Below, piece by piece: positions 16,438 to 27,200 of a stretch of 32,000 bases of DNA. How positions within the stretch are numbered: position 1 is the first letter of the stretch; every line of letters begins with the position of its first letter. The stretch spans positions 2,940,001-2,972,000 of the forward strand of contig NC_009925.1 in assembly GCF_000018105.1 (NCBI RefSeq), read 5' to 3'. The stretch is from Acaryochloris marina MBIC11017 (GTDB lineage: Bacteria; Cyanobacteriota; Cyanobacteriia; Thermosynechococcales; Thermosynechococcaceae). A program made the translations under genes and the position numbers. Under the pieces are notes generated by a model. That model was given only the letters and a program-made list of their open reading frames with translations, was not told the origin of the DNA and did not search any database.

Positions 16438-17142
16438 TTAAGACCTTTCCAATCCACCTGCTGGCATGCCGCCATGACTACGTGGATCGTCTTGATTCCC
16501 CCGGACTGCAGGTTGAAATATAGATGTTTGTCCTATGGCTTGCGACTTGGGCACGGTTTCTTCCGCCACTAAGGCTGCTAAATTATCTGCCAAAATCTGT
16601 CGGGGTTGCTGCCCCACTGAGCTAGCTAAGGCTTCACCATCGCCATCCAGAAAGACAAAATGCGGAATACCATCAACATCAAACTTCAGCACTTCAGGGA
16701 GCCACTTGCTGTTGTCAACGTTCAACATCACAAAATTCACTTGATCAGAAAATTCTTGTTTGAGGCTGTTCATGTCGTCAGCCATTGCCTGGCAACTCGT
16801 ACACCAATTCGCGTAAAACTCCATTAGAGTTGGTTTTTGGTTTGCCAAGGCGACTTCTAACGGCGTCGAATTAACTGCCAGGGTTGATAATGAGGGCTGT
16901 TCAGTTTGTTGACGAGAGCCGAGAAAAAGGGCGATGCTAAGTGCGATCGCAACCATAGCAACCAAAAAATTTCTCAATCGTTGACTGGAGGTTGCTGCAT
17001 TAACCTCAGGATCGGACGGCATATCTGATGGATCTAAAGTCATGAGGTATCCAAAAACTTGACTAATCATTCCCATTCTCAGTTTAGTCATCCACCGGCT
17101 CAGTACACACATCTTTACCCCATAAAATTGCACCTTTGGCAC
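16438..17142 (-). CDS. Membrane-anchored thioredoxin-like protein (TxlA/TlpA-like)
   Basis: Active site 'FYANWCTSCQ', thioredoxin-fold tail 'VDGIPHFVFLDGDGE', and TM 'FLVAMVAIALSIALFLG'. The true start is probably internal, for example ATG 17043. Confidence 0.8.
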   Translation of the reverse strand: MPKVQFYGVKMCVLSRWMTKLRMGMISQVFGYLMTLDPSDMPSDPEVNAATSSQRLRNFLVAMVAIALSIALFLGSRQQTEQPSLSTLAVNSTPLEVALANQKPTLMEFYANWCTSCQAMADDMNSLKQEFSDQVNFVMLNVDNSKWLPEVLKFDVDGIPHFVFLDGDGEALASSVGQQPRQILADNLAALVAEETVPKSQAIGQTSIFQPAVRGNQDDPRSHGGMPAGGLERS

Positions 17143-17379: not shown

Positions 17380-18042
17380 ATGAAACTTAAAAATCAGCAG
17401 ATGCTACCTCTCGACGAGCAACTCCGTCAACTGGTCATAGAAGCCCGTCAATACCCCTCTGGTCATTTGAAGCGCAAGCAATGTTTGACGCAGATTGTCA
17501 GGCTGATTGAGCAATCTCGTAAGCTCTGGCATGAGCATACGCCTTACTATGAAGATGCTTTACAGCAAACCTGGGTTTATTTTTGTCAGAATATTTGTGA
17601 AGCCGGTACTGGAGAACAATATGATCCGGACCGGAGTAGCGTCATTACCTGGCTCAACCGATATCTAAAATGGCGATTACAAGACTTTCGGATTAACAAA
17701 CAAAAGCACCTCGCGAGATATACCTCTACAGTACCTAGCGCCATCAACAAAAACCAAGATGCAACGGATAATCTCGCCGCTCCACCCGATACTCCCCCCA
17801 TTTTGGAAACAACCCGTCATTGGGTGGAAACTGATCCCTCCGGCGAATTAAGAAGCGTTCATATCCAAAACCGACCGGATGTCACTTGCCAAGCTTTACT
17901 CTTACGACGTCTTCCACCGGAACAAGGCTGGGAGAAGGTTTCCGAAGAATTTGGCTTGCCAATTTCGACGTTGAGTAGTTTTTACCAACGACAATGTATG
18001 CCTCGCTTGCGTAATTTTGGACAGTCACAAGGATATCTATAA
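17380..18042 (+). CDS. ECF-like sigma-70 family protein
   Basis: Region-2-like 'YEDALQQTWVYFCQNI ... SVITWLNRYLKWRLQDF' and region-4-like HTH 'GWEKVSEEFGLPISTLSSFYQRQCMPRLRNF'. AGGTGG lies upstream of the ATG. Confidence 0.7.
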   Translation: MKLKNQQMLPLDEQLRQLVIEARQYPSGHLKRKQCLTQIVRLIEQSRKLWHEHTPYYEDALQQTWVYFCQNICEAGTGEQYDPDRSSVITWLNRYLKWRLQDFRINKQKHLARYTSTVPSAINKNQDATDNLAAPPDTPPILETTRHWVETDPSGELRSVHIQNRPDVTCQALLLRRLPPEQGWEKVSEEFGLPISTLSSFYQRQCMPRLRNFGQSQGYL

Positions 18043-18065
18043 TAGAAGTTCCTGATTTTGACTCC

Positions 18066-19037
18066 ATGCTTCCCTTGATGAGCGATTCGTTAGCCTTACC
18101 GATTACCCAAGCCGCAAGACAAATAGCCCAAGACTTTGGGCAGCAACAGTCCACACCCGAGAAATGCCAGCAAGTCTATCTCAATACCTTAGCGGTCTTA
18201 GCTGTTAAAGAGTATCTGGCATTGATGGAAATTCCTTACAATCTGGAAGCTAGCGATAGCTGGAATCCCGTAGTACGATTATGTGCAGACGTTGCCGACC
18301 TCGTCGTTCCAGGCATGGGAAGTTTGGAATGTCGCCCGATTTTACCAGACACGCCAACTTGTCTGTTACCCCCTGAAGTCTGGTCGGACCGCATTGGTTA
18401 TCTGGTTGTTATCATCGATGATCAACAGCGGAGAGCCCGCATCCTAGGATTCACACCCACGGTTCAAGCCGGTCAAATTGCAATAGATCAATTACAGCCC
18501 CTCGAATCCTTATTGGCTCACATCAGTGAATTTATGTTGGTAGACACAAAATCACCGACATTCGTGCAGACCGATCTAGGTCAATGGCTACATGGTATCT
18601 TTAATCAAAGTTGGCAAGTGGTTGAAGACCTCTTACAACCTTCTACCCTAGAGCCAGCCTTCCACTTTAGAAGTGCAGCCACAACATCAACTGTGGAGCT
18701 GGATGACGATGCCGTCCAAATCAAACGGGCCAAATTAGTCAAGTTCAAAAATGACGCAGAAGAAATTCCTCTCGTTCTGATCATGAATCTTCTGCAAACT
18801 GAATCAGATAGCCAGCGTATGCTCTGTGTTCAGCTTCGACCTGCAGGTCAATGCGCCTCATTACCCGCTAATTTAGTGCTTAGGGTACTGGACAACCAGC
18901 ACAACACCTTTTTAGAAGCCCAATCGCGGCAAGCAGACAACTACTTACAGCTGGAATTCAGCGGATTACCAGGAGAACAGTTCCATCTCGATTTAGAGCA
19001 AGGAAACCACATCCTTACGGAAACATTTATTATTTAA
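18066..19037 (+). CDS. DUF1822-family protein
   Basis: The N-terminal pattern '...QQ.TPEK.QQVYLNTLAVLAVKEYLALMEI' and the ~320-aa size match my recollection of cyanobacterial DUF1822. Starts 23 nt after the sigma stop. Confidence 0.65.
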   Translation: MLPLMSDSLALPITQAARQIAQDFGQQQSTPEKCQQVYLNTLAVLAVKEYLALMEIPYNLEASDSWNPVVRLCADVADLVVPGMGSLECRPILPDTPTCLLPPEVWSDRIGYLVVIIDDQQRRARILGFTPTVQAGQIAIDQLQPLESLLAHISEFMLVDTKSPTFVQTDLGQWLHGIFNQSWQVVEDLLQPSTLEPAFHFRSAATTSTVELDDDAVQIKRAKLVKFKNDAEEIPLVLIMNLLQTESDSQRMLCVQLRPAGQCASLPANLVLRVLDNQHNTFLEAQSRQADNYLQLEFSGLPGEQFHLDLEQGNHILTETFII

Positions 19038-19090
19038 AATTTTTGCCCTGGCTGCATAGAAAGGAGATGCCTCTATAAAGAGTACAAGCC

Positions 19091-22000
19091 GTGGATAAAT
19101 TAGTTGTATTGCGCATGGGAGAAGGTAGCTTTACACAGGGTTTTCCTGTGACCCTTCAAGTTGGCCAAGAAAACGATAGACCCTCTACTGAAATTGTCGG
19201 TTCTCTTCCTCCCAATCCTAATATCCCCGAGTATTATCAAGGGTGGCAAACGGCTTATCTCAACTTGGGATTAACCACCCGATTAGATGCTCCCACAGAA
19301 CAATTAACCAACATCGACTGGCAAGAACTCCAAGTCAACTGCGAACAGGCCGCCCAAACCCTTCATCATGCATTAGACCGATGGCTCCTGGCAGACACCT
19401 TTCGCCCCGTCCGCGATAAATGGCTAGAGCAACTGTCTCTCCAAGATCACATTCGCATTATTCTGCAAACGGATAATCCGCAGCTCCAGCGCTTACCCTG
19501 GCACCAGTGGGAACTTTTAACTCGCTACCCTTTTGCAGAACTGGTCTTGAGCGCTCCCACCTATGAAGGCATTCAACGCCAATCCAGCTCTACTGCTGGC
19601 ATCAAGATTCTTGCCATTTTGGGAAGTAGCCACGGTATCAATACTCAAGCAGATCAAAGGTTACTCAATCAGCTTCCTCACGCAAATGTGACTTTTCTCG
19701 TAGAACCACAGCGACAAGAACTCACTGATCAGCTCTGGGACCAAAACTGGGATATTTTATTTTTTGCAGGCCACAGCCATAGTTCCAATCCCTGTGACAC
19801 GGGCCATATTTGCCTCAATGCCCATGAAACACTAAACATCAAACAACTGAAGTATTCTTTGCAGCAAGCCATTAGCAAAGGGTTACAGCTTGCCATTTTC
19901 AATTCTTGTGACGGTTTAGGGCTCGCCCATCACCTGGCCGATCTCCATTTGCCAGCCATGGTGATCATGCGCGAGCCTGTACCTGACCAAGTAGCTCAGT
20001 ATTTTCTCAAGTACTTCTTAGCTGCTTTTTCTAAGGGCAAACCCTTTCATTTAGCCGTCCGCGAAGCCCGGGAACGACTCCATGACCTAGAGCCCCAGTT
20101 TCCCTGTGCCACATGGTTGCCAATTATTTGCCAAAACCCAGCCGAACCACCTCCAACATGGCAACAGCTCAATCAAAACGGTGGGGATGACTATTCTTTA
20201 TGGCGCCATGACAATGACTCGGCGGCTCAAATCGTCACCATTGTCTTCACTGATTTAGTCAGCTCTACTGCCATTAAACAGGCGATGCCTGGCCTGGATG
20301 TCACAACTCGTAACCAACAGTACTACGACACGATCCTCCAACCCCATCGTCAACGCGTCACTACTAGCTTAGCGGCCTTTGGCGGTCGTTTGGTTAAAAC
20401 CGAAGGGGATGGCTTTCTGATGAGCTTTCCAGGGGCTATGCAGGCTGCGCAGTGGTCCATTGCCCTGCAACAGCACCATGAACAAGATCCAATTGAGACA
20501 CCGTTTGGCCCCTTGCAAGTCAGGATTGGTATGCATACAGGCAGCCCCTTATTGAATGCTGAAGATCATGACTATATTGGTCAAGAAGTCGACTATGCCT
20601 ATCGCATTTCTGACCTGGCGGATGGTGGGCAAATCTTGCTATCAGAAGTCTCAGCGGTGTTACTGCGCAATGCTGGTCTAACAGATATTACCGTATATGA
20701 CCATGACCATTGCCCCCTCAAAGGCATCGGCTCTGTCCCTATTTTCGAAATTCTTTGGGATAATCGGCAACCGCGCCCACTGCGGGGGAGTAAACCATCC
20801 ACAGTCTCTAACGCTCTCAATACAGATCAGCAACCTGCGAACAAAACACTCTCTGAGCCCATTGCTAGACCGCCAATCGAGGCGGAACCGCCTGCAGAAA
20901 AAGTCTCTCTGTTTTCTAAAGTTCATCGTTTTTGTCGCCGCCCTCTATGGTCCGTTTTGCCCACCAGTCTATGTTTAACGGCAGCCCTGCTGGGTATTCG
21001 AGGACTAGGCTTGTTACAACCCATGGAGTTTTGGGCGTTTGATCAGTTATTACGCCTTAGACCTAACGAAGGGCCGGATCCCAGGCTACTAATTGTATTG
21101 GTCACGGATAAAGATATTCAGGCCCAAGGAGATCAGACCCGGCGCAGTTCTTTAAACGATCCAACTCTGACGCAACTTCTCACTAAATTAGACGAGGCCA
21201 ATCCAAAAGCCATTGGCCTAGACATTTACCGAGATTTTGCCGTTGATCCTAACTACCCCAAGCTAACGACCCAACTCAAAAACAATGAGCGCTTAGTGGT
21301 TCCTTGTAAAGGAAGTGACTCATCCAGTGATAGCGATCCAGTCGGCATCGCCCCTCCACCAGAAGTTAAAGCACCTAATCGCATCGGCTTTACAGATTTT
21401 ATCGAAGATGGAGATGGGGTGTTACGTCGCCATATTCTTCATATGAACCATGAGCCCGCTTCTCCCTGTCGAGCGTCTTTTTCCTTCGGGGCTTTATTAG
21501 CCTTTCACTATTTGGAACAGCAGTCAAAACAGGCGTTTTCATTAAAGTTTGCGGAACCCAATGGTCAACCTTTGCAATTGCAGGTTCAAACGGCTCAACC
21601 AGGCACTGACGCGACTCGAACCACAATCTTTAAACAACTACAACCCCATGGCGGTTATCAAGGGATTAATGATGACCGCATGCAGGGCTTGCAATTACTG
21701 CTGAATTATCGAGCATTGCAGAAACCGACCGACATCGCCAAAACGGTAACTTTGGAGCAAGTTCTAACAGGTCAAGTTAATGCCAATGCCATTAAGGACA
21801 AGGTTGTTTTAGTAGGGGTCCAATCTAGTGGATCTGGAGATTTTTGGTCCACGCCCTATGGTGCCGGCCCCACGCAGAAAGTTGCTGGTGTCTTTGTCCA
21901 GGCCCATATGGCCAGCCAAATCATGAGTGCCGTTGAAGATCAACGCTCCTGCTTCAAAATATGGCCTCAATGGGCTGATGGTTTGTGGATATGGGGTTGG

Positions 22001-22222
22001 ACAATGATGGGCAGCATCGTCGCCATTGTCTTCAAATTCACCACTCGTACTGGTATAGTCAGCGCGGTTTTAATAGGTGGATTGTTCAGCCTCTGTTTAT
22101 GGGGCATCGTCCAGGCCATCTGGATGCCGCTGATGCCAGCTCTAATGGCTTTTATCATCACAACTCTTGCGGTGCTATTAGTGCGTACGCAACAAATTGA
22201 CCCCGATCATCAAGCTTCTTAA
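19091..22222 (+). CDS. Multidomain membrane protein: CHAT caspase-like protease, class III adenylate/guanylate cyclase, TM, periplasmic CHASE2, three C-terminal TM helices
   Basis: CHAT dyad candidates are 'FFAGHSHS' (His codon 19772-19774) and 'IFNSCDG' (Cys codon 19907-19909). Cyclase motifs are 'VFTDLVSST', 'VKTEGDGFLMSF', 'VRIGMHTG' and 'GQEVDYAYRISD'. CHASE2 motifs are 'LQPMEFWAFDQLLRLRP..RLLIVLVTD...IGLDIYRDF'. Three hydrophobic helices lie at the extreme C-terminus. GTG start; ATG 19115 is an alternative. Confidence 0.85.
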   Translation: MDKLVVLRMGEGSFTQGFPVTLQVGQENDRPSTEIVGSLPPNPNIPEYYQGWQTAYLNLGLTTRLDAPTEQLTNIDWQELQVNCEQAAQTLHHALDRWLLADTFRPVRDKWLEQLSLQDHIRIILQTDNPQLQRLPWHQWELLTRYPFAELVLSAPTYEGIQRQSSSTAGIKILAILGSSHGINTQADQRLLNQLPHANVTFLVEPQRQELTDQLWDQNWDILFFAGHSHSSNPCDTGHICLNAHETLNIKQLKYSLQQAISKGLQLAIFNSCDGLGLAHHLADLHLPAMVIMREPVPDQVAQYFLKYFLAAFSKGKPFHLAVREARERLHDLEPQFPCATWLPIICQNPAEPPPTWQQLNQNGGDDYSLWRHDNDSAAQIVTIVFTDLVSSTAIKQAMPGLDVTTRNQQYYDTILQPHRQRVTTSLAAFGGRLVKTEGDGFLMSFPGAMQAAQWSIALQQHHEQDPIETPFGPLQVRIGMHTGSPLLNAEDHDYIGQEVDYAYRISDLADGGQILLSEVSAVLLRNAGLTDITVYDHDHCPLKGIGSVPIFEILWDNRQPRPLRGSKPSTVSNALNTDQQPANKTLSEPIARPPIEAEPPAEKVSLFSKVHRFCRRPLWSVLPTSLCLTAALLGIRGLGLLQPMEFWAFDQLLRLRPNEGPDPRLLIVLVTDKDIQAQGDQTRRSSLNDPTLTQLLTKLDEANPKAIGLDIYRDFAVDPNYPKLTTQLKNNERLVVPCKGSDSSSDSDPVGIAPPPEVKAPNRIGFTDFIEDGDGVLRRHILHMNHEPASPCRASFSFGALLAFHYLEQQSKQAFSLKFAEPNGQPLQLQVQTAQPGTDATRTTIFKQLQPHGGYQGINDDRMQGLQLLLNYRALQKPTDIAKTVTLEQVLTGQVNANAIKDKVVLVGVQSSGSGDFWSTPYGAGPTQKVAGVFVQAHMASQIMSAVEDQRSCFKIWPQWADGLWIWGWTMMGSIVAIVFKFTTRTGIVSAVLIGGLFSLCLWGIVQAIWMPLMPALMAFIITTLAVLLVRTQQIDPDHQAS

Positions 22223-22253
22223 GTCCTCATCCCCAGTAAAGGAGATTTCGTTT

Positions 22254-23102
22254 ATGCTGACTGACCAACCTTTTTCTCGATCAATGCTGCTCACGCTAGC
22301 GGTTGTTACTGTGGCAAGTGCAGGACTTTCTGGGCGCACACCTCATGTCATGGCTATGCATCAGCACAACCCTATGACCTTTACCATGCCAACGCCCCCC
22401 AGCGATCCTGGAGCGCCAACAGGTCGGCGTGAAGGTGGAAGTAGCCGTGGCGATAAAATTTACACGCTATGTAAAACGGTAGAAGAAGCTGCGAACAAAC
22501 AATGTGCAACGTCTCGTTTAACCGCTCTAGTCCCTGAAGTTGATGCTGAAAAACAGATATGGGGCCTGACTGGAGCGGATCATCCAGAATTTCTGTTCTA
22601 TTTATCGAAGTTCAGAACCCCCGAGCAACCCAAAACCACACACCTAAACATTGAATTCGTTTTGCAAGATGAGGATGATAAATACGTCCACAAAACCAGT
22701 TTTGTCTTACCGTTAACGGAAGGCGGCATCATTCGTATTCCTATTCCTGAGAATCGAGATCCTTTACAGGTCGGCAAGCGATATACCTGGACGCTGTTGA
22801 CAAAATTTGGGCCAAACGAGACCAATTATGTCCACGGCAGAATTTACCGTAAGCAGATGGACACCCAACGCCAGCAAGAACTGCAAACCGCCTCTCCCTT
22901 GAAGCGATTGGAAATCTCTTTAAAAGAGGGGTTATGGTTTGATGCGATTGCGATGCTCGTTGATTTAAAACAGGATGCCCCTCAAGATCTCACCATTCTC
23001 TCAAGATGGAACAGTTTATTAGACGACATTAATCTTAAAGAACTGGCCACGGAACCCATGCTGTCTTGCTGTACCCCAGACCCCCACTTATCGTTCAAGT
23101 AA
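22254..23102 (+). CDS. DUF928-family exported protein
   Basis: AAGGAG sits 8 nt upstream of ATG 22254. Signal-like 'SMLLTLAVVTVASAG'. DUF928 hallmarks: 'PPSDPGAPTGRREGGSSRG', 'LTALVP', 'EFVLQDEDD', 'GKRYTWTL' and 'GLWFDAIAMLVDL'. Confidence 0.8.
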   Translation: MLTDQPFSRSMLLTLAVVTVASAGLSGRTPHVMAMHQHNPMTFTMPTPPSDPGAPTGRREGGSSRGDKIYTLCKTVEEAANKQCATSRLTALVPEVDAEKQIWGLTGADHPEFLFYLSKFRTPEQPKTTHLNIEFVLQDEDDKYVHKTSFVLPLTEGGIIRIPIPENRDPLQVGKRYTWTLLTKFGPNETNYVHGRIYRKQMDTQRQQELQTASPLKRLEISLKEGLWFDAIAMLVDLKQDAPQDLTILSRWNSLLDDINLKELATEPMLSCCTPDPHLSFK

Positions 23103-23158: not shown

Positions 23159-24454
23159 CTAGGCATAAGAAAGCGTTTGAGTGGTTTGATTCCATTGCCA
23201 GCACGGCTGATTGGGCCGAATTAATACACCACCTAACCAGCGATCGCAAGTTTGTAGCGATCGCCAATGTTGCGTTTGAGCAAGAAGCGCTAGCCCGAGA
23301 GGTGTAATGTCGAAGTGGCGTTGCGACCAAGGTAACTCCATGGTTTCTGGCTGAACGGTAAGCAGTGGATGCGGGCCATTGAGGAGTTGTTGCAACACAA
23401 ACCAATACATGGTGTCTCCCAAATAGGGAAGTGGCTCTCGCTCATTGACTAGCATCTGAAACAGATCCTGACCCAGGCATGGCCCTTCAGCCACAATCGT
23501 CAATGTCAGACGTTCCGTTAAGCTGAGACCATCTTCCGCCCAAGGGAGCTCTTGTAAGTGACGTAGGAGTGCAGGGCCAAGAGCAGGTAATTGAGAGGTA
23601 TCCTCCGTGGCGATGGACCACAGATCTTCTGGAGAAGGAGCCGTCAAGGCTTGCCAGGTGCGATCGCATAAGTGCATCTGCTCAGCAGTCACAGGCTGAC
23701 GTTGGGACCAAAGCAGCGGCAAGGCTTCTAAGGGTAACTGCCCCAAACCCCGAAAACATCGGATACCCGGAAAGGAATCAATGCAGATCAAGTCTAGTTT
23801 TTGGGAATCCCCCAATTCATACCTAAAATAATGCAATAGGTAGGATAGGCTAAGCTGGTCATAACTATCGGCTTCAAACCACAACAGAATTCGAGGGTAG
23901 CGGTGGCTGGCTTGCAGGTGATGATATTCAGTATGAAGGCGATCGTGGATGACCTCTAGTTCCATTTCATAGGCTGTGGCCATAAACTCAGCCCGTCGTT
24001 GAATGTACTCTGACCGATTGGTCAGCGACTGCACCGGCCCTTGGCAAAACGGATCGGTAAACGCTAAATAATCTCCCACAAACCCGGCTTGTTGTAGACG
24101 CTGTTCCAGATCAGAACCACAGCGGATATGTAGCGTGGAACAATCAGCATCTGGTGGCGGGAGTTGCTGGGCTTTCAGTTGAGACCGAATCAATTCCATT
24201 TGGTCAATGTGAGCTTTCATTTGCGACCAGCTGGAAAACTGATTTTCTCGAGCAATGACCAACTGCGCATCTGCTAATTGCAGCAGATTCATAAACATGA
24301 CCTGTCCAGGTTGGCAGTCCGGATGGTATTTCTGAAAGCGATCAATGGATACAGGATCCCCAGCTTTTGCCTTTTTCAAAATATCTTTAGCGCGCTTGCG
24401 TTGTTGCTCAAGATTTAAGCGGCCATCATTTTTTGAATCAGGGTGTTGGGACAT
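23159..24454 (-). CDS. DUF1835/DUF3658-like protein with an N-terminal helical extension
   Basis: The core begins 'TLHIRCGSDLEQRLQQAGF.GDYLAFTDPFCQGPV', as in DUF1835. The N-terminal ~90 aa reads 'LEQQRKRAKDILKKAKAGD...'. The call rests on motif memory only. Confidence 0.55.
   Translation of the reverse strand: MSQHPDSKNDGRLNLEQQRKRAKDILKKAKAGDPVSIDRFQKYHPDCQPGQVMFMNLLQLADAQLVIARENQFSSWSQMKAHIDQMELIRSQLKAQQLPPPDADCSTLHIRCGSDLEQRLQQAGFVGDYLAFTDPFCQGPVQSLTNRSEYIQRRAEFMATAYEMELEVIHDRLHTEYHHLQASHRYPRILLWFEADSYDQLSLSYLLHYFRYELGDSQKLDLICIDSFPGIRCFRGLGQLPLEALPLLWSQRQPVTAEQMHLCDRTWQALTAPSPEDLWSIATEDTSQLPALGPALLRHLQELPWAEDGLSLTERLTLTIVAEGPCLGQDLFQMLVNEREPLPYLGDTMYWFVLQQLLNGPHPLLTVQPETMELPWSQRHFDITPLGLALLAQTQHWRSLQTCDRWLGGVLIRPNQPCWQWNQTTQTLSYA
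23240..23264. repeat. Two HIP1 palindromes (GCGATCGC) 9 bp apart
   Basis: GCGATCGC at 23240-23247 and 23257-23264. Ten more perfect copies start at 1139, 3507, 7063, 8378, 9638, 10422, 16943, 23660, 25819 and 28399. Confidence 0.9.
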
Positions 24455-24814
24455 GCAGCTCAGAGAATCACCTGCGTTCGCTCCTCAGGAAAAGGTTTTT
24501 AGCGTAACTAATGATGGGCGCAGCCCTTTCCGCGAACGTGGTGGTGCTCACAACACTCTATTGAGAAATATACCAGCAATATTTTTATTTGCACAAGAAT
24601 TTTTTTATGTTGAGCCATAGTAAGAAACTAGCGTTAATCCGATGCCCGAGAACGTCTTAGATGCATCATTTTTCGGAAACAAGCAAATATTTGCTCTTCT
24701 CATAAAGATTATGAGGTATGAGTTATGGAAATATTTAGGCGATACTGAGAACAACCAATTTGAGTACCTAAATTATCAACCAACCAGGCGAACTTCCACA
24801 TGATTTTTGAACCT

Positions 24815-24855
24815 AAAAGACAATGTTTTCTATAGGCAATATAGAAAACATTGTC
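24815..24855 (-). terminator. Perfect 16-bp hairpin with a short U-tail on the minus strand
   Basis: GACAATGTTTTCTATA (24819-24834), loop GGCAA, TATAGAAAACATTGTC (24840-24855). On the minus strand it is followed by TTTTAGG. It lies about 230 nt downstream of tRNA-Cys. Confidence 0.4.
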
Positions 24856-25086
24856 TACAAAAAAGAAAACTATAACTACTTAATTAAGGTAAACAACCAA
24901 TACAACATTCACCTACACATCCAAAATTTCAAGGATTCGCTATGCTTAAAATTGCTTGAACGGTTGACAATACCTCAGCACCTTCATCCGATCAGCCACT
25001 CAACCATCCTTGGCGAAAGACGCTATACAAAATGGCGTCTCTGCCAATACAGCGGAGAACACTCTTATACTTTGTTTCTTAATTAA

Positions 25087-25157
25087 AGGCGGCACCCAGA
25101 TTCGAACTGGGGATAAAGGCTTTGCAGGCCCCTGCCTTACCACTTGGCTATGCCGCC
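25087..25157 (-). tRNA. tRNA-Cys (GCA)
   Basis: Reverse complement is GGCGGCATAGCCAAGTGGTAAGGCAGGGGCCTGCAAAGCCTTTATCCCCAGTTCGAATCTGGGTGCCGCCT. It folds as a 71-nt cloverleaf with acceptor GGCGGCA/TGCCGCC, anticodon loop CTGCAAA and T-loop TTCGAAT. Confidence 0.9.
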
Positions 25158-25316
25158 GTTGAAGAACTTTAAGCTACTACCTTTTAGGTTAGCAAGATTA
25201 CGAAAAGCTCAGCAACCATCAACCATATCATGGTTTAGAGAAGAATGGCTGCCTAGAAGCGAGTACTGGAGTTATCACTCAAGCAAACTCAACTCAGCAG
25301 CCTATGGTGTCATACC

Positions 25317-25544
25317 TTATAAACCTTCTGTGGGAACCAATTCCCATAACCCAAAGGCCGGTCCAATAAACCGCACTACTAACCAGGAGGCTAGCACAAG
25401 AAATATACCGACCCAGCTCCCTTTCATCACCAAGTTATAGATTTTTTCGAGCTGGCTCTTGGTCAACGGAAACCAAGACACCATTTTGGATTCTTTGCCG
25501 TAGTCGTTTCCTAAGGTTTCTTGACGACGTTTTGCTTCACCCAT
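25317..25544 (-). CDS. Small conserved cyanobacterial membrane protein, DUF2839-like
   Basis: 'MGEAKRRQETLG..YG' N-terminus followed by one TM and 'VRFIGPAFGLW'. This matches my recollection of DUF2839. Confidence 0.6.
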   Translation of the reverse strand: MGEAKRRQETLGNDYGKESKMVSWFPLTKSQLEKIYNLVMKGSWVGIFLVLASWLVVRFIGPAFGLWELVPTEGL

Positions 25545-25655
25545 TTCTTTTCCCTAATTTAGACCACTAAAGTCGCAAACAGTACTGCCTAAATCTTATC
25601 GACAAAATGGGGATGGATTACAGAGGGATCATCCTGATTTAAGATACGGTCTCCT

Positions 25656-27200
25656 TCACTCAAGCCGCTGCTGACCAGACGCCGTTGCGAACAAGCTGTC
25701 ATCCAAATAGTTGATGCGTGAATAGGGACTCAGGGCTGTTAAAACTTGTTGACCATAGCTACGATGTAAGACCCGATTATCGAAGAGCGCCACGATACCT
25801 TGATGACGTCTGATGGGTGCGATCGCAGCCTGTAGCGTTCGCAAAGCCGTAGGTAATAGGTAGAGTCGGAACCAGTCTTGGCGATGGTGCTTATAGTAAG
25901 CCACCCGACCCGCCACCCGCGGATCTTCCAAGGAGGGGATGGGCAGGGTAGCCACAACCAGCAGGGCGGGAGTCGGCAGGGTGGCCTGATGCTGTAACCA
26001 ATAGTCCCAGCCGGTAATCAGAATCGTTTCTGCATCCAGATCTGACGTTTCCAGTTGGACCCGGGAGCCAAATTCCGAGGCCATCGCTGTCGCCATTTGG
26101 CGCTGCATCGGTGTGTCTTCGATAATAATGACCGTCGGTCCCCCAGGCTGGGCATTGGCAACCATCAGAAGATGCAGCTGCTTCAGTAAGGCTCCTTGAA
26201 ATGAAGGGGTATTGGGCATAGGTAAGCCATCTGGGAGATATAGCTGCACCGCTTCCGCCTCTCGATGGGCTCCAAATTGAACATAGGTCATGTCTTCAAG
26301 GCCCAGTTGCTGGCGAAATAGCTTCGCCTCGGGTTCAAGGTCAAAGCTACTGCCCATCAGTACAACCGGCTGTCGCGACCATAACCCCTGCAAGCTGAGA
26401 TTGACTTCATTGGGAGCACAGTGCAACGTAAAAGCACCATTGTCGCGGTTTAGGCCACTCCACAATAGATGATGATCCGATTGATAGGCCTGCCAAAACT
26501 GCTGCCAATTCGGCGGACTAAGGGCCATACCATGAGCCAGAATCGCTTGATGTAGCTGGGCTAAAATTTGACGTTCTTTCTGCTCAATAAGGGTGTGGCC
26601 ATAGGGATTCTCAGGGTGCTGGAAAAGCGCACGAGTTAGCTTAACCCGAGTTTCCCGAATCAACTCTAGCAGCGGCGGGTAACACCAAATCAGTTGCTCC
26701 CAGTCCGGTGGGTGGAGCGACAGGGTGAGCTGTTGCTGAGCCCAACCTTCAAGCTGGTCAGCATTATCAATCAGGGTAGGGATATCAGAGGGAAATTGAT
26801 AGGCCTGGGTCAGGTAGTCTCGTAACCATACCTCTGGAGTGACCAGTAAAACGCCTTTAAAGTGACTTCCGGGCCAATGGTCAGCAGCCAAAATTGGCTT
26901 TTTGATCTGCATCCATTCGTGAAGGTGGGGCATCTCAACCCGGAGCAATTGCTGTTGCGCAGCCAGGGGCGCCACTAGGATAACGGCGTCTCGCCAAATC
27001 ATCAGCGGCGCTAAATAACTGAGTCGATGCAGCCCTTGATGTTTCGCTGACGCACTAATCTGAATCAGAGCACTGCGCTTAAGCCGGAAGGCACGAGCAA
27101 CGAGGCGAGCAATGGTGAGGTGATGAGGCCATTGATCAGAACCCTGATCTCGCAGGAAGGCATGGAGTTGGCGATGAACTTCGACCTCAATCACAATCAA
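25656..27200 (-). CDS. DinG/XPD-like helicase homolog with degenerate ATPase motifs
   Basis: 'ALIQISASAKHQGLHRLSYLAPL' sits where DinG has 'LLIEAGTGTGKTLAYLLPA'. 'LIDNADQL' sits where DEAH is expected. The C-terminal 'GIVALFDNRVL...YGQQVL..L' resembles the DinG motif VI region. TTG start. Confidence 0.55.
   Translation of the reverse strand: MIVIEVEVHRQLHAFLRDQGSDQWPHHLTIARLVARAFRLKRSALIQISASAKHQGLHRLSYLAPLMIWRDAVILVAPLAAQQQLLRVEMPHLHEWMQIKKPILAADHWPGSHFKGVLLVTPEVWLRDYLTQAYQFPSDIPTLIDNADQLEGWAQQQLTLSLHPPDWEQLIWCYPPLLELIRETRVKLTRALFQHPENPYGHTLIEQKERQILAQLHQAILAHGMALSPPNWQQFWQAYQSDHHLLWSGLNRDNGAFTLHCAPNEVNLSLQGLWSRQPVVLMGSSFDLEPEAKLFRQQLGLEDMTYVQFGAHREAEAVQLYLPDGLPMPNTPSFQGALLKQLHLLMVANAQPGGPTVIIIEDTPMQRQMATAMASEFGSRVQLETSDLDAETILITGWDYWLQHQATLPTPALLVVATLPIPSLEDPRVAGRVAYYKHHRQDWFRLYLLPTALRTLQAAIAPIRRHQGIVALFDNRVLHRSYGQQVLTALSPYSRINYLDDSLFATASGQQRLE

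Follow-up and report, generated by a model that had tools for sequence, protein, structure and literature searches.

The closest described relatives of the locus considered here are systems that Kaur, Iyer, Burroughs and Aravind (eLife 2021, PMC8195603) assembled computationally, in which a constant 'EACC2' domain and a caspase are followed by a variable C-terminus, CHASE2 with transmembrane (TM) helices being one of the variants, and in which genes for a sigma factor of the extracytoplasmic function (ECF) type and a DUF1822 protein are neighbours of the gene for the EACC2-caspase protein. That paper proposes that a stimulus activates the protease and that sigma-mediated transcription results, also puts forward 'autopeptidase activation', and places these systems among conflict systems with variable sensors; its table further includes fusion proteins of the HTH+...+DUF1822 type (HTH, helix-turn-helix). 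Here we analyse a module of four genes, A to D, at positions 17380 to 23102 of a 32,000-nucleotide (nt) stretch of DNA from the cyanobacterium Acaryochloris marina MBIC11017 (contig NC_009925.1, positions 2,940,001 to 2,972,000; this whole stretch is called the window below). The four genes are as follows (aa, amino acids):

17380 to 18042, plus strand: gene A, predicted divergent ECF-type sigma-70 family protein, 220 aa
18066 to 19037, plus strand: gene B, DUF1822 protein, 323 aa
19091 to 22222, plus strand: gene C, membrane protein with N-terminal constant domain (N-domain), CHAT, cyclase and CHASE2 domains, 1043 aa, GTG start
22254 to 23102, plus strand: gene D, DUF928 protein with predicted export, 282 aa when counted from its ATG

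This locus shares with the published systems a constant N-domain that is followed by a caspase-fold CHAT domain and then by a variable sensor (CHASE2 here and Pkinase in the related locus L040; L numbers denote loci examined in this study), and it shares the adjacent genes for an ECF-type sigma factor and a DUF1822 protein. A Fischerella row in the published table has the same gene order, and its 'TM+beta_rich+TPRs' gene matches the anatomy of DUF928 (TPR, tetratricopeptide repeat). The window locus very probably belongs to this EACC2-caspase/sigma/DUF1822 kind, and the earlier statement, made from the letters alone, that no functional description was known has to be withdrawn, as PMC8195603 describes these neighbourhoods and proposes an output for them. 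The HTH-DUF1822-type fusions are in addition a Rosetta-stone hint that HTH/sigma and DUF1822 proteins work together. There are also differences. The part of the paper available to us does not name DUF928 or note its association with CHASE2, and it makes no mention of a cyclase inserted between caspase and CHASE2; DUF1822 is there called a TPR protein, whereas the model obtained here combines an alpha/beta domain with a beta-sandwich, and the window DUF1822 is without the TRADD-N signature of some of the proteins named DUF1822 there. Measured against that part of the published description, the new elements are a lineage-specific cyclase insertion, which would make a two-output receptor, and DUF928 as a predicted partner of CHASE2 whatever the output domain. 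Our literature search found no experimental study of any component (DUF1822, DUF928, CHASE2 with CHAT or orthocaspase, or an ECF/anti-sigma/CHAT combination).

Two further sets of systems, both established by experiment, couple proteolysis to sigma factors. In Craspase of type III-E CRISPR, the TPR-CHAT protein Csx29 cuts an inter-domain loop of Csx30, and the N-domain of Csx30 binds the ECF sigma factor RpoE (PMC9825189). A sensor-activated CHAT protease, a two-domain substrate with a cut loop and a transcriptional output all have putative counterparts in the A. marina module, but the trigger is an RNA-guided Cas7-11 there and a periplasmic CHASE2 on a membrane-anchored protease here, the window contains no CRISPR-Cas or cas genes, and DUF1822 has no detectable similarity to Csx30. 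The CalpL/CalpT/CalpS and SAVED-CHAT/PCaspase/sigma systems of type III-B CRISPR/CBASS (bioRxiv 10.1101/2023.06.23.546230) are similar to what is proposed here in that signal-activated cleavage of a sigma-bound inhibitor or sigma-associated protein replaces classical membrane anti-sigma proteolysis; they differ in their cytoplasmic cyclic-oligoadenylate input via SAVED, in the Lon-type protease of Calp and in their defence-island contexts. By analogy, the module may work like the Craspase and Calp systems, of which it is not a member. To our knowledge, CRISPR-associated defence systems are so far the only ones in which caspase-fold proteases have been shown to control sigma factors. In the Escherichia coli RpoE-RseA system, with DegS and RseP, an envelope cue leads through proteolysis to release of an ECF sigma factor. 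The same course of events is proposed for the A. marina module, and in both cases the regulator gene lies directly 3' of the sigma gene; however, the regulator here is soluble and unlike anti-sigma domains, the sigma-like protein lies far outside the curated ECF models, and a caspase-fold enzyme fused to the sensor stands in place of a site-1/site-2 protease pair.

The four open reading frames (ORFs) were confirmed as co-directional on the plus strand with gaps of 23, 53 and 31 nt. The 31-nt gap between genes C and D follows from taking the gene D start as the ATG at 22254. A ribosome-binding site, AAGGAG, lies 8 nt upstream of this ATG, and homologues start there; the longest mechanical ORF begins at a TTG at 22197 and overlaps gene C. 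None of the three junctions contains a terminator-like or promoter-like site, and such sites are no more frequent in the region than in shuffled sequence. The intergenic gaps of the module are also free of inverted repeats and the module of Rfam families, and a known RNA element or intergenic hairpin was rejected on these grounds. The operon-like arrangement that the sequence-only reading had proposed from close spacing and the lack of hairpins between the genes was thus confirmed.

Relatives of the sigma-like protein were scanned over one genome per species, and the best 80 of the 539 loci found were examined; all of these are cyanobacterial and they come from many orders. The loci were searched both by comparing their ORFs with the individual domains of the window and by unbiased clustering of neighbouring ORFs. 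The tally of the four-gene synteny was restricted to the 59 loci with at least 6 kb of downstream DNA, and in 32 of these, from many cyanobacterial orders, all four genes are present in the order sigma, DUF1822, N-domain+CHAT+CHASE2 and DUF928. Partial sets account for the others: the first three genes (6 loci), the first two (3 loci), sigma and DUF928 only (1 locus), sigma, DUF1822 and DUF928 with a frameshifted protein C (2 loci), or the sigma-like gene alone (15 loci). In the unbiased clustering, no families other than these four recurred widely as partners; TPR-CHAT proteins, at 15 loci, and ShlB/POTRA transporters, at 7 loci, were accessory neighbour families. Synteny beyond this genome was a check set beforehand, and its conservation across cyanobacterial orders argues that the module is real; the earlier statement that two-partner-secretion genes, which are absent from the window, accompany some related loci was also correct on both counts, as the ShlB/POTRA genes show.

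The components of the module are not conserved to the same degree. Median identities to the window, taken over 31 non-Acaryochloris loci, are 59% for the sigma-like protein, 61% for CHAT, 52% for the N-domain, 46% for DUF1822, 47% for CHASE2 and 36% for DUF928, which is the fastest-evolving component. The predicted cytoplasmic sigma and CHAT parts are thus conserved, whereas the predicted periplasmic CHASE2 and DUF928 diverge faster, and this pattern fits a modular arrangement of input and output.

Protein C, the presumptive receptor, has the following parts:

19091 to 19390, plus strand: N-terminal constant domain, aa 1-100, corresponding by architecture to the 'EACC2' of Kaur et al. 2021
19403 to 20116, plus strand: CHAT protease domain (caspase-like, clan CD), with the catalytic residues His228 (nt 19772-19774) and Cys273 (nt 19907-19909)
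20228 to 20734, plus strand: class III nucleotidyl cyclase domain, placed between CHAT and TM1 by a lineage-specific insertion
20942 to 22192, plus strand: membrane/sensor region, with TM1 at aa ~618-640, CHASE2 at aa 630-975 and three C-terminal TM helices at aa ~965-1034

The CHAT, cyclase and CHASE2 assignments of the sequence-only reading were all upheld by direct Pfam matches (CHAT, E 2e-13, aa 105-342; Guanylate_cyc, E 3e-9, aa 380-548; CHASE2, E 2e-61), as was its topology by hydropathy, with which TM segments and signal-like N-termini were called throughout: CHASE2 is predicted to be periplasmic and the N-domain, CHAT and cyclase cytoplasmic, and a basic KVHRFCRR stretch precedes TM1. 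In an alignment of 45 orthologues of protein C, aa 1-100 and CHAT are together highly conserved, and the same N-domain precedes CHAT in the kinase-bearing paralogue at L040. We equate this N-domain with EACC2 through the match of its architecture to the 'EACC2+CASPASE+CHASE2+TM+TM' table rows of Kaur et al., and not through a model score. The catalytic dyad motifs of CHAT, FFAGH228S and FNSC273DG, are at least 95% conserved in the 45 orthologues, from which we expect the protease to be active. Between CHAT and TM1 these orthologues showed no conserved motif, and no solved relative of the N-domain+CHAT portion was found by sequence.

The cyclase has a different history. Its segment (aa 365-570) is missing from ~85% of protein C orthologues and is confined to loci of the A. 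marina group of Acaryochloris (L001-L004, L086/L087) and one metagenome-assembled genome of the Acaryochloridaceae (L010). Acaryochloris thomasi has the same four genes beside the same thioredoxin gene (below) and no cyclase, so the domain is a recent insertion in the A. marina lineage and does not belong to the conserved system. Among the cyclase-bearing orthologues the domain is 78-91% identical, compared with 29-43% for the adjacent linker, and all of its motifs are fixed; by this measure the inserted cyclase is under purifying selection. Among solved relatives the adenylyl cyclase Ma1120 matches best (E 3e-12); with it the metal-binding aspartates D388 and D440, the substrate-specificity pair K436/D494 and the transition-state arginine R505 align, all of them invariant in the cyclase-bearing orthologues.

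Protein A consists of two helical domains joined by a linker and has no TM segment:

aa 11-115: sigma2-like helical domain
aa 117-139: disordered linker
aa 140-216: sigma4-like HTH domain

The AlphaFold2 (AF2) model of protein A has a predicted local distance difference test score (pLDDT) of 80 and contains these two domains and the disordered linker. Protein A belongs to a large family under tight conservation (1210 word-search hits; 956 clusters at 50% identity), some members of which are labelled sigma-70 family by NCBI. How clearly the sigma relationship appears depends on the width of the profile. With a narrow family profile, Rhodobacter sphaeroides RpoE was collinear and non-significant (E 0.53) in a search of the PDB, and a first hhalign comparison aligned the HTH alone with a probability of 1.3%. 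Of 25 close relatives, only 1 touches Sigma70_r2. A wider profile that takes in the most divergent members matched region 2 of solved ECF sigma factors (RpoE 2q1z, E 2.4e-4; SigK 4nqw, E 9.6e-4), and 13 of 36 divergent relatives match Sigma70_r2 (best 1.7e-7), while one member matches Sigma70_r4_2. The hhalign comparison with E. coli RpoE, whose sequence was entered by hand, gave E 8.9e-5 and a probability of 60% over 121 collinear columns from region 2.2 to 4.2, and region 4.2 of protein A is collinear with that of RpoE in the profile alignments. In Foldseek the top matches of protein A are almost all sigma factors, none of them significant; region 4 of SigR, for example, superimposes with a template modelling score of 0.68 at E 5, and the non-significance of the whole-chain matches is probably due to the flexible linkage of the two domains. 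On the wider profiles and the predicted fold, we assign protein A to the sigma family as a very divergent protein of ECF type with a putative sigma function.

The close family of protein A also has invariant cysteines, C69, C73 and C206, and a fourth (C170) that is at least 90% conserved; the sigma2-like domain carries the motif FCQNxCE. DUF1822 likewise has two invariant cysteines, C89 and C99 (ECRP...C). Such cysteines are unusual for sigma factors and, in the two proteins, could mean metal binding or redox control.

Protein B was confirmed as a DUF1822 protein (Pfam E 9e-69) that has no TM segment and is predicted to be soluble and cytoplasmic, and its gene occupies the slot directly 3' of the sigma gene, the usual anti-sigma place, as had been noticed at the outset. 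In the window the two genes are co-oriented with a 23-nt gap, and DUF1822 lies directly downstream of the sigma-like gene in 59 of the 79 loci over which this adjacency was counted. The AF2 model (pLDDT 82) has an alpha/beta N-terminal domain that holds most of the invariant residues, a disordered linker and an Ig-like beta-sandwich C-terminal domain that resembles the SoxZ, DUF3244 and ApaG sandwiches in a fold search. The linker is the part of most interest:

18657 to 18710, plus strand: DUF1822 inter-domain linker, aa 198-215, with the F201-R202 motif (A-F/Y-x-F-R-S/G), a candidate CHAT cleavage or docking site

Its pLDDT is below 50, and in 58 DUF1822 proteins R202 is present in all 58 and F201 in 54, followed by a variable acidic stretch and then a conserved R-R-A-K. 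We infer that this invariant short motif within a linker modelled as disordered resembles a protease site or a docking motif. Clan CD proteases other than animal caspases commonly cleave after Arg or Lys. Identification of DUF1822 as a TPR, anti-sigma or TRADD-N protein was not supported by the AF2 model, the fold search, a PDB profile search and a motif check. The anti-sigma role that had been suggested for it thus finds no backing in similarity: no anti-sigma fold was seen, and the zinc-binding motif HxxxCxxC occurs neither in the window protein nor in the family alignment. At the turn that corresponds to TRADD-N beta2-beta3 the DUF1822 consensus is G-x-G-R and not the u-S (u, tiny residue) of that RRM-like alpha+beta sandwich, and no TRADD protein was matched in the fold search. 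The sole PDB match of DUF1822, a designed repeat protein, was judged spurious.

Protein D is a DUF928 protein (Pfam E 3e-44) with a signal-like N-terminus, in agreement with the prediction that it is exported to the compartment of CHASE2. Its family has a P-x-P...GAPxGRRxGGSSRG motif just past the signal peptide and a second motif, LTALVPE; the core of the protein is beta-rich and its C-terminus helical, and no solved relatives were found by sequence. Many DUF928 proteins have a C-terminal Cys-Cys (SCCTP). DUF928 lies downstream of 31 of 36 CHASE2-bearing homologues of gene C, and it also lies beside a CHASE2-histidine kinase (L009) and CHASE2-cyclases (L053, Microcoleus L081, Laspinema L083) that have no sigma, DUF1822 or CHAT gene nearby. 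At the Elainella locus L040, a protein kinase replaces CHASE2 on the N-domain+CHAT protein, sigma and DUF1822 still precede it, and DUF928 is absent. From these neighbourhoods, DUF928 tracks CHASE2 whatever the output domain, and not the sigma module specifically; the sensor swap at L040 and the adjacency of DUF928 and CHASE2 away from the sigma set together indicate a portable input pair (CHASE2 and DUF928) and a portable output set (sigma, DUF1822 and N-domain-CHAT). The stand-alone CHASE2 receptors of Microcoleus, Laspinema, Trichormus and an Acaryochloris paralogue have the same 1+3 TM topology as protein C and a DUF928 neighbour; they differ in that their output domain is C-terminal of CHASE2, whereas in protein C the CHAT and cyclase domains precede TM1 and two different outputs are carried by one receptor. 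One paper reports that CHASE2 and DUF928 are adjacent in Nostoc punctiforme and refers to a DUF928 gene of Synechocystis that is induced by acid stress. Gene neighbourhood makes DUF928 a candidate periplasmic partner of CHASE2. We know of no ligand for CHASE2.

The module is a predicted system, of which the analysis shows the anatomy, topology, catalytic residues and synteny. How it might operate can be put together as follows: DUF928 would act as co-receptor or ligand of the periplasmic CHASE2 domain; a periplasmic signal would then rearrange or oligomerise protein C and so turn on the CHAT protease; CHAT would cleave the disordered linker between the two domains of DUF1822, probably at the Phe-Arg motif or close to it; cleavage would free or remodel a sigma factor held by DUF1822, and RNA polymerase would be redirected; and in the A. 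marina lineage the inserted class III cyclase would provide a second, cyclic-nucleotide output of the same receptor. Each functional step in this chain is conjectural, and as a whole we consider it plausible and just short of probable. A wider formulation, in which a CRISPR-free 'receptor-caspase' pathway operates throughout the cyanobacteria, with DUF928 as the first CHASE2 partner, Phe-Arg cleavage, dual output and possible feedback through a CRP-like site (below), is more doubtful.

Several results weigh against the proposed chain. Protein A has no Pfam match to the curated sigma models (Sigma70_r2/r4/r4_2) even at E 10 and no NCBIfam match at E <= 0.01, so the original sigma call stands by way of the wider family profiles and the fold and fails as a direct hidden Markov model (HMM) match. 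In 15 of the 59 loci, mostly from Nostocales, the sigma-like gene has no adjacent DUF1822 or CHAT-CHASE2 gene, which indicates that the sigma-like protein can work in other contexts. No autoregulatory promoter motif shared across orders was found upstream of the sigma-like gene by k-mer enrichment, which gave only the HIP1 palindrome GCGATCGC and a Nostocales-specific leader TATTCTTGCT. Neither Foldseek nor the PDB profile search shows any similarity of DUF1822 to anti-sigma domains, TPR, Csx30 or CalpT, and it is a candidate sigma binder by gene position only. Craspase cleaves after Leu/Met and not after Arg, while the candidate site here is an Arg. Finally, the GxxVNxAxR motif of the cyclase reads GQEVDYAYR, in which Asp replaces the transition-state Asn and the Asn of Ma1120 falls opposite Glu; this form is fixed in the cyclase-bearing orthologues, and the replacement of the canonical Asn makes the catalytic output of the domain uncertain.

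Other explanations were also weighed. Protein C might process itself and so free its N-domain+CHAT portion from the membrane, or CHAT might cut the linker between the sigma2-like and sigma4-like domains of protein A, with DUF1822 as an adaptor or scaffold. 'Autopeptidase activation' as put forward by Kaur et al. favours this idea, PCaspase cuts a putative sigma factor directly in a type III-B system, in protein A a conserved PD(I/T)PP(I/L)LE block comes after a disordered linker of ~20 aa, and the absence of an anti-sigma-like fold in DUF1822 together with its Ig-like C-terminal sandwich, a typical interaction module, would suit an adaptor. However, the invariant Arg in the otherwise variable, disordered DUF1822 linker looks like a cleavage or docking motif, DUF1822 occupies the anti-sigma gene position in the 59 of 79 loci noted above, and no conserved motif was seen in protein C between CHAT and TM1, so we regard self-cleavage or sigma cleavage as unlikely. 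That protein A is not a working sigma factor at all, and is instead an HTH transcription regulator or the decayed remnant of a sigma factor, would explain why it lacks direct sigma HMM and significant Foldseek matches, why the narrow-profile hhalign aligned its HTH only, and why it carries unusual invariant cysteines. Against this are the collinear profile matches to regions 2 and 4 of solved ECF sigma factors, the Sigma70_r2 matches of 13 of 36 relatives and the correspondence of the two-domain+linker model to the ECF sigma layout, and its very strong conservation indicates that protein A is not decaying; we find this alternative highly improbable.

The remaining alternatives concern the purpose of the module and its unity. 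A counter-invader system of the anti-phage or abortive-infection type, in which an invader cue would act on the caspase-like effector and the sigma factor would drive defence or suicide genes, is suggested by the placing of EACC2-caspase systems among conflict systems in the 2021 paper, by paralogous copies with different sensors in one genome (L003 and L009; L027 and L040), by the fact that the mechanistic precedents are all CRISPR-linked and by the fast evolution of the periplasmic components. Yet defence-system membership was rejected, as none of the four proteins matches the PADLOC defence models, and a plasmid or mobile origin was likewise rejected, as the window has no plasmid match and housekeeping flanks, its context being neither a defence island nor a mobile element. 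In addition, the chromosomal position of the module with the same flanks is stable across Acaryochloris and relatives, the sigma-like protein and CHAT are strongly conserved across orders, and a periplasmic CHASE2 would be badly sited for sensing intracellular phage. Taken together, these observations make a counter-invader role distinctly unlikely. It is also conceivable that two independent units simply adjoin one another, a CHASE2/DUF928 receptor with a cyclic-nucleotide output and a separate sigma/DUF1822 pair, with no link between protease and sigma. CHASE2+DUF928 and the output set are found apart elsewhere, stand-alone CHASE2-cyclases with DUF928 are common, and the sigma-like gene stands alone in Nostocales; but the N-domain+CHAT gene directly follows sigma-DUF1822 with either sensor, CHASE2 or kinase, the gaps of 23, 53 and 31 nt are free of signals, and most protein C orthologues have no cyclase, which indicates that CHAT is the conserved output. 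We therefore consider two unconnected units very improbable.

Returning to the proposed chain from CHASE2 to the sigma factor, if it is true then protease-gated sigma release would be a general bacterial principle, one that runs chromosomally stable transmembrane signalling in cyanobacteria, and relatives of the sigma-like protein are encoded at at least 539 loci in species-representative genomes. DUF1822 and DUF928 would acquire roles, DUF928 as a concrete candidate partner of CHASE2, and the protease+cyclase receptor of Acaryochloris would be a natural experiment in grafting a second output onto an existing receptor. The His228/Cys273 dyad and R202 offer clean mutational targets. The locus is in any case a well-defined and widespread case of putative caspase-gated sigma control outside CRISPR, and it holds no great surprise given what the 2021 paper describes.

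A thioredoxin gene, divergent from the module, lies on one side of it and a convergent DUF1835 gene on the other. The N-terminal hydrophobic segment of the thioredoxin-family protein makes it probably membrane-anchored or exported, and a candidate cis element lies between its gene and gene A:

16438 to 17142, minus strand: thioredoxin-family gene, N-terminal hydrophobic segment
17210 to 17225, no strand assigned: CRP-like palindrome AGTGATTTACCTCACA in the divergent thioredoxin/sigma-like intergenic region, candidate cis element

The thioredoxin gene is divergent from the sigma-like gene in nine loci of the Acaryochloris/Thermosynechococcaceae clade, A. thomasi also having it, and it is thus a conserved neighbour of a cysteine-bearing sigma-like gene. 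The palindrome AGTGATTTACCTCACA agrees with TGTGA-N6-TCACA at 9 of 10 positions and is the sole such site in the window, where 1.2 are expected by chance. L001-L008 and L010, which are all of the Acaryochloridaceae and Thermosynechococcaceae loci, retain it upstream of the sigma-like gene, while the flanking DNA has diverged, and a conserved CTCTTGTA(A/G)T block follows it; sites of this type are absent upstream of the sigma-like gene in other orders. Conservation is the only evidence for AGTGATTTACCTCACA, one such site in 32 kb being not unexpected by chance, and it could serve either the thioredoxin gene or the sigma-like gene. Its interpretation as a companion of the cyclase was rejected because the site is conserved in cyclase-less relatives as well.

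The rest of the window is of housekeeping character (pyrG, ispF, a ROK kinase, CNNM/CorC, PSRP-3, a trpD-type transferase, GNAT, VKOR and two tRNAs), and its annotation includes no cas, two-partner-secretion or mobile-element genes. The nearest relatives of the module are from Acaryochloris: DUF1822 is 94% identical to that of A. marina S15 and DUF928 98% identical to that of strain CCMEE 5410, in which the same module and flanks are on a 4.5 Mb contig that is most likely chromosomal. The module position and its flanking genes are stable across Acaryochloris and relatives. Beyond the convergent DUF1835 gene, the window (23159-25657) continues with a tRNA-Cys (25087-25157) and then a helicase-like gene; in the same region of CCMEE 5410 (L086, 8906-16849) there are DUF2887/DUF4351, an IS1 transposase, an alternative oxidase, a globin, NorB and a CRP-family gene, and these different downstream genes place a synteny break directly after the module. 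The CRP-family gene of CCMEE 5410, of the cNMP-binding/HTH_Crp type (cNMP, cyclic nucleoside monophosphate), is ~7 kb downstream of the module.

At L018, L056, L010 and L040 the CHAT-CHASE2 or DUF1822 gene is split over two overlapping ORFs, through either assembly error or pseudogenisation, and these apparent frameshifts suggest occasional decay of the module. In Nostocales a conserved pair of DUF2330 and RnfD-like genes lies upstream of the sigma-like gene, which is followed either by a ShlB/POTRA transporter gene (L045, L057, L068, L070) or by a gene for a 900-aa TPR-CHAT protein (L050, L059, L061, L079), and both arrangements occur with or without the DUF1822, CHAT-CHASE2 and DUF928 genes. 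RTX-repeat proteins are encoded nearby at nine loci. These neighbours hint at a link to secretion.

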